From the IMG/VR virus record IMGVR_UViG_3300029641_000003: DNA of 64,000 bases, one strand, 5' to 3'. Below the pieces are notes generated by a model. It saw only the letters and a list, made by a program, of their open reading frames with translations, searched no databases and was not told the origin of the DNA. The DNA comes from a virus. Lineage: Duplodnaviria; Heunggongvirae; Uroviricota; Caudoviricetes. Of this stretch, positions 1,310 through 34,152 are shown one piece after another; position 1 is the stretch's first letter; each line of letters begins with the position of its first letter. Both the position numbers and the translations under genes were made by a program.

Positions 1310-1535
1310 AGCAAAATTACTTCTTTTATCGCGTTCGACGGGGTACGAGAAGCTACCAATCAGCAATCACAAACGGGCGGTGATCGGCATGTTTGGTAGG
1401 GTGGTATTCGCATTTAACTATAAACCCACCGCGTCGCGGAACAGACGAGAGAAGGGGTACGCAGTGCGATGAAAAACCGTAAGGCAAAGATGCTGATAGC
1501 AAAGCCCGGGCAGCGTATCCGTATCTCAAATCGGC

Positions 1536-2851: not shown

Positions 2852-3813
2852 CCACTTTAACCGACAAAGAACTGATTAAAGAAATCAAAGAGCGCATAGG
2901 CAGTCTGGACGTGCGAGACAATATTGAGCGCCGTGCTTATGAAATTGCTCTGGCATCGCTGGAGGCAGAGCCTGTTCTGTATCAGTCCTGCACTCGCCCC
3001 ACCTGGAATAGCGGTGTTCCGTGGACGGAATGGAAAGAACGAAGTCGTGAGTGCTACGAAGACGATTTGCGCTTTACAGACACGCCTGACCATGCCGGTT
3101 GGATATACAAATGTCGAAAACTATATACCACTCCGCCAGCGCCGATAGCGTTAGAGGCCATTGAAAACGCAATTGAATACATCCGCAGTATCGCTTTTCA
3201 CATCAATGAAGACGATTACCACGGCAAGCATATTGCGTATTTCATGCGACAAGCATTGGCCTGGCTGGAAGGGCATTCATGCAGCGACGACAGACTGGGT
3301 AAAGCCGAGAATCAAACAGTACACGGCAACCAGGCTGCCGAATCCAATCGCGGTAATGAGTGGACCGGCAATCCTGATATTGATAACGCCATCATCATGC
3401 TCGATCGCATAGATACGCTGGAAAGTTGCGATGATGACCGTATTGAGGCGGTTAAGACTGTTTTGCGTAGACTGGCAGGCAACTCTCCGGTAATTCCGGA
3501 TGGTTTATCCACGGTATGCGCTGAGGCTTATCAGGTTGTAGGAGTTATGGCAGATGCGCTTGGTGTATTCGGTGATGCAGCAGTACAGAAAGTTCTGGAT
3601 AACCTGTCACAGCAAAAACTTGTTCACAGAGATGTGCTGCCGTTCTCGCTTCCGGTAACTCCGGATGGTTGGGTTATGGTTCCTAAACAGGTAACGCCGG
3701 AAATCAGCAACGCGATAAACGTTGTGGGTCAACGCTGTACATGCGGAAATTGCTCTCAGCGGTTGTGGGATTTATTACTCGACGCCACACAGCAAGGAGT
3801 TAACCGTGGCTAA
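2848..3813 (+). CDS. hypothetical protein
   Basis: 321-aa ORF, start overlaps upstream stop; N-terminal region paralogous to 2128..2640. Confidence 0.55.
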   Translation: MTTLTDKELIKEIKERIGSLDVRDNIERRAYEIALASLEAEPVLYQSCTRPTWNSGVPWTEWKERSRECYEDDLRFTDTPDHAGWIYKCRKLYTTPPAPIALEAIENAIEYIRSIAFHINEDDYHGKHIAYFMRQALAWLEGHSCSDDRLGKAENQTVHGNQAAESNRGNEWTGNPDIDNAIIMLDRIDTLESCDDDRIEAVKTVLRRLAGNSPVIPDGLSTVCAEAYQVVGVMADALGVFGDAAVQKVLDNLSQQKLVHRDVLPFSLPVTPDGWVMVPKQVTPEISNAINVVGQRCTCGNCSQRLWDLLLDATQQGVNRG

Positions 3814-18428: not shown

Positions 18429-19000
18429 AAAACCTCCCAGTCAGTAGCGATAATATCAACACCAGTTGCAAACCAGTCTGTCTGTGCCTGTAAATCCCCA
18501 TTCATCATTACCAGGCGAGGCATAACCATCACATCACAACCTTCAACAATATCGAATGCCTCTTCCGGCAGGAATTCGACGAGCTTTTCTTTGCTGCCAA
18601 CACTGCCACGGAGCATCGATATATAGCTCCCTTTAGGCCATGATGTTCGCCGGGCATCAAGCCCCTTCATCATCCAGTAAAAGGCCGATGAGAACGGGAT
18701 GTTCTTTTTGGCGATGAGCACGTTATTCGCTTCTGTGTACTTCAGGAACTTAATTAACCTTACCATTGACTCGGATAACGCAATGTACGGCTCATGATTG
18801 ATTGCTGACACGCTTACGCCGTGCAGTCCAACACTTACCACAGTCATATCACCGTTCTGTGCGGTTTCGATGTTGACGCCTTTACGAACTAACGCTGCAT
18901 AAAGCTCCTCGCGCTTTTGCGTCCAGCATTCTCGTCGCCCTATAAAGTCACTCAAAACGAGATCATCTTCTGAATACGCGTTATCGTTCGCCGTTAACAT
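18425..19000 (-). CDS. two-domain protein with C-terminal DUF2829/Tad2-like domain
   Basis: 191 aa; C-terminal ARRTSWPKGSYI ... TDWFATGVDIIATDWEVF resembles the 10121..10783 C-terminus. Confidence 0.55.
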   Translation of the reverse strand: MLTANDNAYSEDDLVLSDFIGRRECWTQKREELYAALVRKGVNIETAQNGDMTVVSVGLHGVSVSAINHEPYIALSESMVRLIKFLKYTEANNVLIAKKNIPFSSAFYWMMKGLDARRTSWPKGSYISMLRGSVGSKEKLVEFLPEEAFDIVEGCDVMVMPRLVMMNGDLQAQTDWFATGVDIIATDWEVF

Positions 19001-19454
19001 AACGTCTCCTTTTTTACACGCGCGACTATCCCCCGGCTGAACCGGTAGTGACGTCGTAACTTCGTATTAATTAAGGGTTACAGCCTGAGCGGCTATATGA
19101 TGAATTGAAAGGAGTTGTGGCGGTGGTGCCTCCACCTGCCAGGTTAGCCACGCCCGGCGACGACACTTATCAGAACGTAGTGAATGAAAATGGCTTCGTC
19201 ACGAGCGCATAGCCGCAATTACCACAACGGAGAAGGCGCTCGTATTAATTAAACACCTTTTCCTGTTGTACGCCGTGCTATTCCGGCTGTCACACCGAAT
19301 CGCCAGGATGGTGAGTCCCTGAGTCCGCTATCCCTCCAACGGTGACTTGCACATTCCGGCTACCTGGTGTGCCCATGCAGTGTTAGTAAGGCACCTAACA
19401 GCTACACCAGACCGCTAACGACGCATGTGCCATACGCCGTGTTACAACCAAATG

Positions 19455-19530
19455 TGGTGGCCCCTACCGGACTTGAACCGGTGACCGTGCGATTATGAGT
19501 CGCCCGCTCTAACCACTGAGCTAAAGGGCC
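19455..19530 (-). tRNA. tRNA with CAU anticodon (Ile2-like, or Met)
   Basis: Reverse complement GGCCCTTTAGCTCAGTGGTTAGAGCGGGCGACTCATAATCGCACGGTCACCGGTTCAAGTCCGGTAGGGGCCACCA folds as cloverleaf; resembles recalled E. coli ileX. Confidence 0.8.
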
Positions 19531-19539
19531 AGATTACTG

Positions 19540-19668
19540 TTAATTACGCTTACGCTTTTTGCCAGAACCGCGTAAGGCTTTTGCCGCTTGCTCTACCCCG
19601 TATGCAACCACCAGCAGAAACAATAATGTCCACTCCGGGTTTTTATCGGCAAACGCCCAAAAATTCAT
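19540..19668 (-). CDS. small protein (42 aa) with hydrophobic core and basic tail
   Basis: Read by eye: MNFWAFADKNPEWTLLFLLVVAYGVEQAAKALRGSGKKRKRN; ATG overlaps stop of the 77-aa gene upstream. Confidence 0.3.
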   Translation of the reverse strand: MNFWAFADKNPEWTLLFLLVVAYGVEQAAKALRGSGKKRKRN

Positions 19669-19901
19669 CACTTACAGCCACCTTGCATTTCCTCGGATAA
19701 TTCATTGACTTTAGTGCTCAATAAGTAATCAAAGTAAAGATAAAACACAAAAGTAACGATAGTGCTTAAAGTGTCTGAAATTGCGTATTTCAGCTCAGGA
19801 AGCATGACAAAGCAGACAAATAGCGGAAGAAATAACTGCACTATGCACAGACTCTCCTTCCACAACCATCTATATCTGAAGTCTGACAACAAAAACTCCA
19901 T
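19668..19901 (-). CDS. small membrane protein
   Basis: 77 aa with two hydrophobic helices. Confidence 0.4.
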   Translation of the reverse strand: MEFLLSDFRYRWLWKESLCIVQLFLPLFVCFVMLPELKYAISDTLSTIVTFVFYLYFDYLLSTKVNELSEEMQGGCK

Positions 19902-20026
19902 TGCTTGAAACTTTATTAGATTGCGGTGCCTGGTGCCTCCAGGTGACGTTAACCAGTTAACAATTAACGCCGGGATGTTTGACTTAACTATTAAGGAAAA
20001 TTGTTTTAACTGTTCCGCGTGCGCTT

Positions 20027-20059
20027 AGCCGCATTCACCGCAATGGTAAGAGCATTTGG
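20027..20059. repeat. tRNA-cluster repeat, copy B
   Basis: AGCCGCATTCACCGCAATGGTAAGAGCATTTGG; related copies near 19211, 20383 and inverted near 20465. Confidence 0.5.
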
Positions 20060-20149
20060 CTGGCTGGGCGGCGATGACGCCTGTACGCATTTGGTGATCC
20101 GGTTCTGCTTCCGGCATTCGCTTAATTAGCCAAATACTCTTAACGTTGC

Positions 20150-20236
20150 GCTGGCGGAGAGTAATGGAATCGAACCATCATCGCTTGCGCAATGGGACGG
20201 TTTTCAAGACCGCTTGAGCACCATGCTCCCTACTCT
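20150..20236 (-). tRNA. tRNA-Ser (UGA anticodon), long variable arm
   Basis: Acceptor stem GGAGAGT/ACTCTCC plus G-CCA; anticodon arm CGGTCTTGAAAACCG as in recalled E. coli tRNA-Ser; D-arm atypical. Confidence 0.6.
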
Positions 20237-20382
20237 CCAGTGATTGTGGTGGTCGGTACTGATCTCCGACTGCGCCTCTTTTTTTCATAGCCCATAAGGC
20301 CGGTCAGTGCGCTTGATGACTGAGGCATCGATATTTACTACGCCGCCTCGTTGCCATAGGGCGGACTTGCGCGCCAGCAACG

Positions 20383-20486
20383 CGCATTCACCACAACGGA
20401 AAGAGCATTTATGGCTCGCATCGCGGGAAGCGGGAAAAAACCCACGGTAGAGAGTCGAACTCTACAAATGCTCTTACCTGTTGTGT
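20383..20486. repeat. inverted pair of the tRNA-cluster repeat (copies C and D)
   Basis: CACCACAACGGAAAGAGCATTT ... AAATGCTCTTACCTGTTGTG flank a GTAGAGAGTCGAACTCTAC hairpin 3' of tRNA-Thr. Confidence 0.45.
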
Positions 20487-20562
20487 TGGTGCCGGTTAAC
20501 GGACTCGAACCGCTGACATCCTGCTTACAAGGCAGGCGCTCTACCAACTGAGCTAAACCGGC
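20487..20562 (-). tRNA. tRNA-Thr (UGU)
   Basis: Reverse complement GCCGGTTTAGCTCAGTTGGTAGAGCGCCTGCCTTGTAAGCAGGATGTCAGCGGTTCGAGTCCGTTAACCGGCACCA. Confidence 0.85.
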
Positions 20563-20564
20563 AT

Positions 20565-20639
20565 TGGCGATGGTGGATGGATTCGAACCACCGACCAGTT
20601 GGTTAACAGCCAACTGCTCTACCACTGAGCTACACCATC
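20565..20639 (-). tRNA. tRNA-Asn (GUU)
   Basis: Reverse complement ...GTTGGCTGTTAACCAAC...GGTTCGAATCC...CACCATCGCCA; abuts tRNA-Thr. Confidence 0.8.
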
Positions 20640-21950
20640 ACTTGCCGGGTACGTCTCCGGCGAGGGCTTCCACCTCCGTATGCTTTTCGGCGCACCGCGC
20701 CCTGGCTGCAATTCGGTAACAGGGGATGCACAACCCTGGCTTCCAGCGTGATTAGCGCCTTCAGCATGACGGGATATACCCGTTACAAGACATTATTCCA
20801 GAAAGCCATTAACCAATGGCTGTTACGCGGAAAGGACGTAACAGGTAAGGGCGCTGACCAGAAAGACCTGACCCTTCTCATTCATCTGGTTAATCACACC
20901 AGCGCCCTTGCCTGTTATGCCTCCCCGTTCCCTAATACACAGACGGGGACACTCTGCGGTCGATTTTTTGACGGGGGACGACTCATACCCCGTGGTGTCA
21001 GGCTTCTTAGGCCGCTACCATCATCAGATCATCGTTTGCATTTACTTTAATGGTCGGGTTCTAAACCGCCGCAAAGTCGCTAACCATGACGAAAACACTG
21101 AAAAAACACCCACCCGAAGGTGGGCAAATATCCCACTCGCGGTATTGCCACTTAGGCGTATGGTCAACCTGGCAACTCGGTGTCCTCAACGGGGAAGGAA
21201 TAACCCCGCCATACTTACCGCCGCGCCTGTCGCGGTTATCGCTACGTATCAACATAAAAGCCGACTGCCTGAGCAAGATTCACTTTCAAAGGCCCGCAGA
21301 AAGGAATCCATAGTCGGCTTTTATCTTGAAGCGGCTCTCTCTCCGCCCGTCACCGCTCTGTCTCGGTTGTCACGTTTGCCACGCCAGCCGTAACGAGGTT
21401 TAAAGTCTTTGCACGTTTCCATCACTCGACTGCCGTCTGTGGCTGTTCGTTGCAGCGGGGGTGCCTCCCCCTGGGGATATCCCCGGCCTTACCCCATTCT
21501 TTCAAGACACAATGCAAGGCCACATCCGCATAGGTGCATTACCGCAACGTTAAGGAGACTCAGAGTCAGCAAAATAAGAGGAAAACCCAACTCTGCGCCT
21601 CCTTAACGTTGAGGATGTGCACTGATGATGACCCGATGCAGCCTGGCCCACTTAACATACTCACTGCCAGATCATCATCAATGAACACCATAAAAAGACC
21701 TTCCGTGGCTCAAGTCACTGTCGTTTACTCCGTAAAATGCTCTCGCTGAAACCACTTTACGCACTAAACCTGCCGGGCATGTATTTGCACGGTGCCGGAG
21801 CTTTCCCTTACCTTAAAATTTACTTTCTAACACTTAAATTTGTTTGATGCTGGTGGGGAAAGACAATGAAGTGACTATCAAACCCGCAAGCGACATGGGA
21901 AGCTCCCCACCAGCACGAAAAATTCTATGTTAAGTTAACCCCATAATCAA
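20640..21950 (-). ncRNA. ORF-poor, structure-rich region; candidate non-coding RNA(s)
   Basis: 1.3 kb without a convincing ORF; several long perfect stems (21256..21322, 21457..21471, 21544..21610). Confidence 0.3.
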
Positions 21951-21951
21951 T

Positions 21952-21983
21952 ATGTTAGAAAAACAATTTTAATTTTCTAACAT
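21952..21983. promoter_or_regulatory. palindromic operator pair
   Basis: ATGTTAGAAAAACAATTTTAATTTTCTAACAT downstream of the 402-aa gene. Confidence 0.6.
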
Positions 21984-21984
21984 A

Positions 21985-23193
21985 TTATTTCCCGTAAAGA
22001 TTTTCAACTCCACCGTTCTTCTTATCCCACTCGTTCGCCCATACCCGGCAAGCATCAATTATTTCCTGACGGCGATCGCCCTGCATGAACGGAATGCTTT
22101 CATGAAAGCTGCTTGGAATGCAGGCCACACTGAACACTGTATCAAACTCAGTCTGCTTGATTGCCTCCAACGTCTCTGGACGCATTTTCAATTCGTCGAT
22201 CGGTGCATCCTTAGAGTCCATAATCCGGCGATGCAAGCGTGGAAAATCCGTTTCAAGGTACGCCATAATTTTATCTGCCAGGCATTCGTCTATGTCGGTA
22301 TTCCAGTCAGTTTCGAAGCCAGGAATTCGGTAGTAAAGCGGCGTTCCCCATACTGACGGGATCACATCCATCGTCAGCAGGCGGCTGGTTCTGATTTGCT
22401 GATGGTAATTTGCCGTCAGCAACGCTTCGCCACGTTGCCCAGTCTCCGCGACCAGACCATGCGGAAACTCATGGATATAGGCAATAGCTTCTCTTCCGTC
22501 ATACATTAGCGGGAATGTCTCTGGCCTTTGCCCCATGCCACAGGCGCGATTCAGATCATGACCAAGCTCTGAGCACTCTCGTTTCAATGTTTCAATAATG
22601 CTCTGCGCCGCTGCTAACTTTTTACGCAGTGTGACGAGTTCGCCTTGATACTCAACGCATTGCTGATTTAGCTTGGTTAAACGCTCTTTTAGTTCCCGAC
22701 GCTCTCTTTTCAGCGTGCGGTTATCTTTCTCCGCAACATCCAGTCGTTTTGTCAGGCTTGGCGGATAGTCTTTTTTGTAACGACTCAAATCGACTTCAGC
22801 AGATTTGCGCAGTGTATTTGCCTGCTCAAGACGCGCCTCCAGATTGCCGATCTCATTACGCATATTCGCGGCAAATTGATTAACTGCATCCCCCAGGCTT
22901 TCAACTGTCGCTGATACACCAGTGACTTGAGAAAAACGGATCAAGCCATCATTAACGGCTTGCTGATATTCCTCAAACTGATCCACCAGCTTATTGTAAT
23001 CAACTGCCCCATCATCAAGGAGCTGGTTGATTTCCGCCACCAGGTTATCTGTAGTGGCAATGACGCTCTCATGCAGTCGCTTTGACAGGTCATCGCCCGG
23101 ATTTCGTTTCTGTATAAGCGCGATTTGTGTCCGCAGCGTTTCAATTGCGGTTGAGATGATCTCCAGGCTTGATGATTCTACTTGCTGACTCAT
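21985..23193 (-). CDS. coiled-coil protein, flanked by operator-like sites
   Basis: 402 aa; N-terminal half heptad-rich; operator-like motifs at 23214..23228 and 21952..21983. Confidence 0.65.
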   Translation of the reverse strand: MSQQVESSSLEIISTAIETLRTQIALIQKRNPGDDLSKRLHESVIATTDNLVAEINQLLDDGAVDYNKLVDQFEEYQQAVNDGLIRFSQVTGVSATVESLGDAVNQFAANMRNEIGNLEARLEQANTLRKSAEVDLSRYKKDYPPSLTKRLDVAEKDNRTLKRERRELKERLTKLNQQCVEYQGELVTLRKKLAAAQSIIETLKRECSELGHDLNRACGMGQRPETFPLMYDGREAIAYIHEFPHGLVAETGQRGEALLTANYHQQIRTSRLLTMDVIPSVWGTPLYYRIPGFETDWNTDIDECLADKIMAYLETDFPRLHRRIMDSKDAPIDELKMRPETLEAIKQTEFDTVFSVACIPSSFHESIPFMQGDRRQEIIDACRVWANEWDKKNGGVENLYGK

Positions 23194-33824: not shown

Positions 33825-34152
33825 AGTTACGGCCTCGTAAGTTGATAAACAACCTGCGACCCGCTGTCAAACAGGTGGCAGGACGTGACAGGGTTGACAG
33901 ACTGGCACTTACGAAACCAGCAGGCCGAAGCCTCCCCATCACGCCCCACCATAATTCGGGCGTAACGTGGTTTTACGGACACAAAAATACCGCAATATCG
34001 GAAATGTGCGGTTGTCCGCGTAAGTATTCAGGCTGTCAAACCTGGTCGCAGAATTTGCTACGACGGCATGAATATAAGCCTGAACATTAGAAAGATCAAC
34101 AGAATTTTTATCAAATGCTGTTTTTTAGTGACAATGTAAATCATACATTCTT

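Follow-up and report, generated by a model that had tools for sequence, protein, structure and literature searches.

A diverged TciC-type small gene and an orphan open frame between two tRNA genes of a D6/P1-type phage-plasmid

The question raised by this locus is whether two very small open reading frames, packed between tRNA genes in a viral DNA window of 64,000 nt, form a working gene pair. The initial annotation had described them as a translationally coupled pair of very small membrane proteins of a kind often found among toxins, holin-like proteins or exclusion factors. Both frames lie where they had been placed, and the strand is now specified as minus: ORF77 at 19668-19901 and ORF42/43 at 19540-19668 or 19540-19671, according to the start codon that is used. 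The reading which we favor, with a probability of roughly 0.6, is that ORF42/43 is a functional TciC-type gene and that ORF77 is a relic or an accidental frame occupying the slot of the tci genes.

The replicon was placed by comparison with plasmids and phages. Positions 19400-20000 of the window are 99.8% identical to the E. coli plasmid p98192-contig_4 (92.8 kb) and 96-97% identical to seven further plasmids (80-97 kb), and the phages D6, P7 and P1 gave partial matches to the same positions. Elsewhere the window contains a P1-type immI region with the C4 antisense RNA and its a1/b1 targets, the lpa gene (PF25716) and an ORF whose match in the near-identical plasmid p98192-contig_4 is annotated as pacA. 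Because of the plasmid and phage matches together with C4/immI, lpa and pacA, the window is, judged by its sequence, a D6/P1-type phage-plasmid. The order of features on the minus strand is tRNA-Asn, tRNA-Thr, tRNA-Ser, a 250-nt STnc100-like leader, ORF77, ORF42/43, tRNA-Ile2, a Tad2-like anti-defence gene, lpa and pacA. The location inside a tRNA cluster was thus correctly recognized from the start. The upstream edge of the inter-tRNA segment is tRNA-Ser(UGA) at 20152-20238 (minus strand), found by ARAGORN and annotated by RefSeq in the 99.8%-identical plasmid; a tRNA with the anticodon CAU, homologous to P1 trnI, follows at 19455-19530 (minus strand) and begins 9 nt after the stop codon of ORF42/43. 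This second tRNA was typed as Met by ARAGORN and as Ile2 by RefSeq and the P1 record, and it is annotated as tRNA-Ile in the relatives and in P1.

ORF42/43 occupies 19540-19671 on the minus strand and can be read from a GTG (19671-19669) as 43 residues or from an ATG (19668-19666) as 42 residues, ending at the TAA at 19542-19540; its protein sequence is MNFWAFADKNPEWTLLFLLVVAYGVEQAAKALRGSGKKRKRN. A Shine-Dalgarno-like AAGGTGG is located at 19678-19684 (minus strand) within the 3′ end of ORF77, 6 nt 5′ of the GTG and 9 nt 5′ of the ATG. Its pairing with the 16S tail was calculated at -7.0 kcal/mol, and 3.2% of random positions are as good. The site is kept as AAGGTGG in L005 and appears as AAGGTAG in L006, both being relatives with a shorter form of the locus, which is described below. 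Across 20 copies of ORF42/43 at least 10 synonymous and 7 non-synonymous changes were counted (omega about 0.21, neutrality rejected at p=0.0016), the variable sites are distributed 5:3:11 over the codon positions, and the codon score of 0.328, higher than that of 99.5% of open (stop-free) shuffles, corresponds to native-like usage.

The family of ORF42/43 was searched with phrog_23152, the P1 TciC family, and the match is weak but runs the full length (19.3 bits, E=1.4e-3, with residues 2-34 aligned to positions 1-33 of 35). At the corresponding place in D6 lies an ORF without annotation that shares 70.6% identity with ORF43; taken alone, this D6 ORF reaches E=0.17 against phrog_23152. Fifteen family members share residues M1, F3, W4, D8 and K9 without exception, and ORF42/43 has the motif M-x-F-W-x-[FY]-x-D-K, a single hydrophobic helix and a length within the family range of 29-45 aa. 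As in P1, P7 and D6, the ORF is the last one before tRNA-Ile2(CAU), with its start overlapping the upstream stop. On the basis of purifying selection, Shine-Dalgarno site, codon usage, TciC-family match and synteny, we conclude that ORF42/43 is, as far as sequence can tell, a genuine conserved gene and a diverged member of the TciC family. PGAP calls it "hypothetical protein" in the fetched RefSeq relatives, and its counterpart is absent from the D6 reference annotation. The TciC-type family is tiny, with 5.8 billion proteins yielding 18 clusters at 90% identity, and its distant members P0020 and P0021 are found in other phages, where they have no TerB or DUF3927 partners.

The product of ORF42 was modeled by AF2 with an alignment of 15 sequences (pLDDT 83), which gave a short helix at residues 3-9 (FWAFADK), a proline kink, a second helix at residues 11-34 and a disordered basic tail. 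The earlier description of a 42-aa protein with a hydrophobic core and a Lys/Arg-rich tail therefore holds, with a KD peak of 1.8, a tail reading GSGKKRKRN and an AF2 model that agrees. The hydrophobic core comprises 13 strongly hydrophobic residues and then gives way to E, Q and K, so that membrane insertion of ORF42 is predicted to be borderline by hydropathy.

In P1 the corresponding protein TciC is gp076, and the P7 counterpart is Upf69.6, both within phrog_23152. TciC of P1 resembles ORF42/43 in its small size (35 against 42 aa), in the sequence M-x-F-W-x-F-A-D-K-x-P, in its one hydrophobic helix and basic end, and in its place as the last ORF before the CAU tRNA-Ile with a start overlapping the upstream stop. 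However, the identity between them is only 38-40%, the hydrophobic stretch of ORF42/43 is shorter and broken by E, Q and K, and its polybasic tail (GSGKKRKRN) is 8 residues longer. The name TciC derives from the TerB homology of a neighboring gene.

The whole locus was also compared with the tciA-tciB-tciC cassette of P1, P7 and D6. The slot and its flanks are the same, and both have a chain of overlapping stop and start codons; in P1 and P7 the order is tciA-tciB-tciC-trnI, with the start of tciC overlapping the stop of tciB. In D6, with the same flanks, the order is leader, tciA (TerB), tciB (DUF3927), tciC-like gene and tRNA-Ile, which is the phage in which the succession of STnc100-like leader, cassette and tRNA-Ile was demonstrated. 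The present locus is unlike this cassette in that TerB and DUF3927 are replaced by one dissimilar orphan ORF, and the slot is empty in most relatives; no TerB or DUF3927 ORF was detected between the two tRNAs of the window. The tciABC genes form one of eight hypervariable regions in P1-like phage-plasmids (PMC9603915), they are non-essential in P1 by CRISPRi, where knock-down of tciA, tciB or tciC had no effect on plaque formation (PMC10695390), and in D6-like plasmids tciA and tciB have been viewed as moron genes within the tRNA region (PMC6799933). What the window carries here is a variant of this hypervariable, previously known cassette, and ORF42/43 adds a new, diverged protein to a small-protein family already on record.

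The orphan in the slot is ORF77, which extends over 19668-19901 on the minus strand, starts with ATG, encodes 77 aa and is T-rich with a GC content of 37.7%; its stop TGA at 19670-19668 is followed by a second in-frame TGA. The main competitor of our reading concerns this frame. It states that both ORFs are translated as a coupled membrane pair of a toxin, holin-like or exclusion type, that ORF77 is a fast-evolving positional replacement of TciB, and that ribosomes stopping at the UGA begin anew on the TciC-like gene, whose AUG or GUG overlaps this stop. We regard this account as unlikely, and much of the evidence on ORF77 bears upon it.

The length of ORF77 speaks for a real gene, since an open frame of 77 codons arises by chance in 0.37% of dinucleotide shuffles in the given frame and in 1.1% in any forward frame. 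It is also intact in all 18 copies examined, one of them 87% identical. This intactness carries little weight because, with 6.8% of the possible point changes creating a stop, 21 neutral events would leave the frame open with a probability of 0.23. A Shine-Dalgarno site, on the other hand, is missing (dG -0.4), which goes against translation of the pair, though A/U-rich leaders are able to support initiation without one. The codon usage of ORF77 is like that of spurious ORFs; 12% of stop-free shuffles reach its codon score, as do 17% of the natural spurious open stretches within the real genes of the window. ORF77 is left uncalled by PGAP in every fetched annotation record.

Selection was estimated from 18 copies of the 621 nt between the tRNAs, which align free of indels and hold about 21 substitution events in ORF77. 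At least 3 synonymous and 18 non-synonymous changes were counted (omega about 1.6), with variable sites at 7:6:8 over the codon positions; neutrality is compatible with these counts (p=0.31), an omega of 0.3 or less is rejected (p<=0.0015), and the contrast with ORF43 in synonymous and non-synonymous changes is significant (Fisher p=0.006). In L022, the most divergent copy, six changed codons of ORF77 fall in one cluster and create a perfect palindrome, which is probably the result of a single templated event; when this cluster is taken once, the counts are still about 3:13. The absence of a synonymous excess in any frame argues against the coupled pair, but an omega above 1 also speaks for it, as the value of about 1.6 is compatible with diversifying selection and would be equally expected from it. 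Neutral evolution of ORF77 is not proven, because about 21 events are available and the chance of seeing no stop among them is 0.23. Coding in another frame or on the opposite strand of ORF77 was considered and discarded, as each of these frames contains 2-7 stops and has no excess of synonymous changes. A 17-codon out-of-frame ORF behind a strong internal AAGGAG (GTG at 19848) was likewise set aside, its start codon being lost in L008.

The searches for relatives of ORF77 gave the picture of an orphan. No match at E<=10 was obtained in Pfam, PHROG, NCBIfam or PADLOC, and an exhaustive phmmer search of 1.84 billion representatives returned its own cluster only; a word-indexed search of 5.8e9 proteins found 3 near-identical clusters only. 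The clusters P0001-P0003, which represent the long form, contain 47 sequences. By tblastn it was located in 14 PLSDB plasmids of the same lineage and three near-identical IMG/VR contigs, with no match in phage records (E<=10) and none in GTDB species genomes, and the PDB holds no sequence relative below E=0.14. The possibility of a diverged TciB was rejected, since ORF77 gives no score against PF13064 (DUF3927), for which P1 TciB scores 106 bits, and the BLASTP comparison has E=51; the likeness consists of position and a two-segment hydropathy.

This hydropathy is nevertheless a point for the coupled pair, as the two hydrophobic segments of ORF77 lie in the slot of the two-helix DUF3927 protein TciB. 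The proposal of a two-helix membrane protein stands in its first half, where the segment at about residues 18-35 is a strong candidate for a transmembrane helix, and falters in its second, where residues 44-63 are marginal (mean KD about 1.3 by hand sum, not among the windows of 1.6 or more), both being judged by hydropathy. The AF2 model from the single sequence is one long helix and is uninformative as to a hairpin. The best hydrophobic window of ORF77 is in the top 3% of open shuffles, and its overall hydrophobicity is an effect of T-rich composition, with 61% of open shuffles at least as hydrophobic.

The distribution of ORF77 among relatives weighs against a functional pair. Its body, a segment of about 200 nt at 19688-19887 (minus strand), is missing from the commoner short form of the locus, where in our alignment columns 354-553 are empty for L005 and L006, leaving no more than a few codons at either end of ORF77. 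Among 5426 complete E. coli genomes, 8 contain the DNA of the body, and a sensitive blastn search gave no E. coli genome match beyond these 8 plasmids. The segment present in the short form is covered at 80% or more in 51 complete E. coli genomes, a count that should include the 8 with the long form; ORF77 is thus absent in about 43 of the 51 closest E. coli relatives, and the TciC-like gene is retained there. Insertion of the body as a mobile element was rejected, as neither terminal inverted repeats nor a target duplication were seen at its edges. We also rejected the idea that the TciC-like gene extends further upstream in frame in the short forms (MAFCLKRWLQV...), since a TAG breaks this reading in L006.

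The junction of the two frames was examined at the level of codons. It reads AAG TGA TGA, with two stops in tandem, in the frame of ORF77; in that of the second ORF it reads GTG ATG AAT. The ATGA overlap noted at first therefore exists only for the second, redundant TGA, and with the real stop the overlap is either GTGA (4 nt) or TGATG (1 nt). The stop of ORF77 coincides with the start of the gene behind it, as is also the case for tciB, and in P1 the overlap is likewise of 1 nt; this stop/start overlap of the tciB-tciC kind known from P1 and D6 is a further argument for coupling. The geometry allows coupling, yet ORF42/43 carries its own Shine-Dalgarno site, for which reason coupling to ORF77 is not required; for ORF77 as a functional partner we obtained no evidence, and the description as a translationally coupled pair was not upheld.

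The functional classes that had been suggested for the pair were searched for individually. No holin family match was found for either ORF in Pfam, PHROG or NCBIfam and no lysis gene lies nearby; the neighbors are tRNAs and the Tad2-like anti-Thoeris gene 3′ of tRNA-Ile (PF11195, E=5e-10), not an endolysin or spanin. The same three databases gave no toxin family match for the ORFs, and PADLOC returned zero families for both at E<=10. As regards a type I toxin-antitoxin pair, Rfam detected no antitoxin RNA, and on the plus strand of 18300-22200 no promoter-like site was observed apart from 22240, in a consensus scan that may miss a weak promoter.

A different line of evidence for the coupled pair comes from the leader. 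An STnc100-like RNA element at 19868-20063 (minus strand; Rfam RF02076, 43.7 bits, E=4e-8) accounts for the greater part of the 250-nt leader that separates tRNA-Ser from ORF77, and its 3′ end covers the first 11 codons of ORF77. The central helices and CACCUGGAGGCACCAGGCACC of the leader fit the STnc100 model, but the score of 43.7 bits is below the gathering score of 47, which makes it a significant relative and not a full member, and the terminator hairpin is missing, the 3′ hairpin of RF02076 being aligned to a non-pairing stretch without a U-run. Because of the sub-threshold match and the missing hairpin, the element is, by the model comparison, taken as a leader within a longer transcript and not as a free-standing sRNA gene. 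STnc100 itself is a prophage-associated sRNA related to PasD (bioRxiv 10.64898/2026.05.13.724894). The core of the leader is near-identical in D6, where it lies 5′ of tciA, and in lambdoid phages, where it lies directly 5′ of kil (Shigella phage 75/02 Stx) or of dicB (mEp460, just after the DicF terminator).

The dicB-ydfD and kil units of lambdoid prophages are therefore like this locus in having a conserved RNA leader directly upstream; their first downstream gene is small (62-73 aa), and dicB of mEp460 has an ATGA overlap with the next small membrane-protein gene. That the leader precedes small host-toxic genes such as kil and dicB is a point for the coupled pair, but the frame is unlike TciB, DicB or any family, having no detectable similarity to DicB by BLASTP or to Kil (no Pfam match, with the 75/02 Kil compared by reading). 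DicB and Kil are soluble division inhibitors and are not hydrophobic. A diverged or rearranged DicB was rejected, since there is no BLASTP alignment and the nucleotide alignment scores are within those of shuffles. The idea had come from the first seven residues of ORF77, MEFLLSD against METLLPN, and from a QxGC ending in the same place behind the same leader; alignment statistics do not support the likeness of the first seven residues.

On balance we take ORF77 most likely to be nonfunctional in this lineage, either what is left of an acquired gene or a frame open by accident; since its length is improbable by chance, a relic or a gene of recent origin may be involved. The bolder form of the latter, a young and diversifying orphan membrane protein for host targeting or exclusion, which would have displaced TerB and DUF3927 behind the leader RNA that drives kil and dicB in lambdoid phages and be translated without a Shine-Dalgarno site in coupling with TciC, is in our estimate rather improbable.

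Another explanation is that the ORF77 stretch acts as RNA, either as a 3′ extension of the leader or as a spacer for processing or stability, with the open frame being incidental. It is consistent with the extension of the STnc100 match into the first 11 codons, with a per-site variation in the ORF77 stretch of 0.048 against 0.117 in the neighboring coding sequence, and with the retention of the ATG and the first bases of ORF77 even in short forms, where the frame is destroyed. Against it, the predicted folding of the complete segment between the tRNAs does not surpass that of shuffles (z -1.45), the sole hairpin called, at 19850-19836, is weak and is destroyed without compensation in L008 and L022, and the stretch is missing in most relatives. 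We consider a role as RNA to be improbable.

A region with no translated ORF at all, serving as spacer or leader for the tRNAs, as the shortness of both ORFs and the tightly flanking tRNA genes might suggest, is very improbable indeed, for the initial annotation's view of the region as more than a tRNA leader is supported by ORF42/43 with its purifying selection, third-position bias, Shine-Dalgarno site, native codons and TciC homology, including homologues in P1, P7, D6 and other phages.

For the favored reading, a functional TciC-type gene beside a relic or accidental ORF77, a course of expression can be proposed from the surrounding signals. No promoter-like site was found on the minus strand from 21922 to 18300; a candidate promoter at 21950-21922 overlaps with a perfect inverted repeat of 14 nt. 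The inter-tRNA segment contains no convincing terminator, and terminator-like matches are no commoner in it than in shuffles. According to the records of P1 and P7, the homologous genes there (tRNA, tci and ban) form a single operon under C1 control; the P1 C1 operator consensus was looked for upstream of the operon and gave no match with up to 3 mismatches. We infer that the segment would be co-transcribed with the tRNAs from an upstream promoter, and that tRNA processing may free a message of about 620 nt, with RNase P cutting 9 nt after the stop of ORF42/43. The TciC-like peptide would then be translated from its own Shine-Dalgarno site and most likely be a single-pass inner-membrane peptide with a hydrophobic helix of about 24 residues and the polybasic tail in the cytoplasm. 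ORF77 would have taken the place of tciA (TerB) and tciB (DUF3927), evolving neutrally and being already lost in most relatives. By its context, our best guess for the TciC-type peptide is a dispensable, membrane-acting accessory of the moron kind, which may be expressed with the early or derepressed operon.

The analysis makes it possible to link a 42-aa "hypothetical protein" of D6-type phage-plasmids to the TciC family of P1, and it advises against carrying ORF77 forward as a gene in annotations until expression data exist. If ORF77 were translated after all, it would exemplify how a small membrane protein confined to one lineage can arise in an accessory hotspot of phages. The locus also illustrates the turnover of the tci slot, in which TerB and DUF3927 are replaced or deleted and the TciC-type peptide and the leader RNA persist.

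Upstream of the tRNA genes, a promoter-like site (TTGATT-17-TAGAAT) was located on the minus strand of the window at 21950-21922 and is overlapped by a perfect 14-nt inverted repeat, AATATGTTAGAAAA / TTTTCTAACATATT (21949-21986). This repeat is a candidate repressor operator of the tRNA-bearing operon; the scan of the whole window found the P1 C1 operator consensus nowhere. The candidate promoter is separated from the first tRNA by some 1.3 kb (20640-21985, minus strand) in which no ORF is convincing and a strong terminator-like hairpin with an 8-bp stem and T6 is present (21126-21107, minus strand). This stretch may encode a small RNA, and P1 has a 'dicF-like region' annotated at the equivalent place. 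The immunity region of the window is of the P1 immI type and is formed by the C4 antisense RNA together with the a1/b1 elements that it targets, at 33871-33956 and 34025-34077 on the minus strand (Rfam RF01695, RF03163).

[quoted passage not shown] Because close relatives carry Arg-Tyr-Thr-Ser-Ile or Arg-Thr-Ser-Ile in place of this set, the tRNA complement is itself variable. Directly 3' of tRNA-Ile and in the same orientation is a gene whose 191-aa product carries a Tad2-like domain (18425-19000, minus strand; PF11195, E=5e-10); RefSeq names this protein either as 'Thoeris anti-defense Tad2 family' or as 'MW1434 family type I TA toxin'. In the reference annotation of phage D6 (NC_050154), the TciC-like ORF (MMDFWTYIDKNPGWSLLFLLVIVYGVEQVAKNLRRRK; 3138-3251, minus strand) is absent, the tRNA-Ile downstream of it is also missing, and tRNA-Ser, Thr and Asn are placed opposite to the strand that reads the tRNA-Ser sense sequence.

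In the most divergent copy of the 77-codon ORF77 (L022, IMGVR_UViG_2913177423_000001), nine substitutions fall within 24 nt (1545-1568, codons 16-23) and produce the perfect palindrome GAATAT-CCTGTCC-ATATTC; the cluster looks like a single quasi-palindrome-templated mutation and not nine separate events. Residues 1-7 of ORF77 (MEFLLSD; 19881-19901, minus strand) are similar to the start of DicB of mEp460 (METLLPN; 1450-1470, minus strand) at a corresponding distance behind the common leader, and both products end in Q-x-G-C; homology was not supported by alignment statistics.

The core of the STnc100-like leader (19909-20040, minus strand) is nearly base-for-base identical in lambdoid phages, matching positions 1501-1563 of the Shigella phage 75/02 Stx locus and 1501-1552 of that of mEp460. 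In the former, kil is directly downstream of the core; in mEp460 the DicF terminator, the core and dicB immediately adjoin in this order, and in D6 the core is followed by tciA. In phage types that are unrelated, one conserved RNA element thus stands ahead of different small accessory genes.
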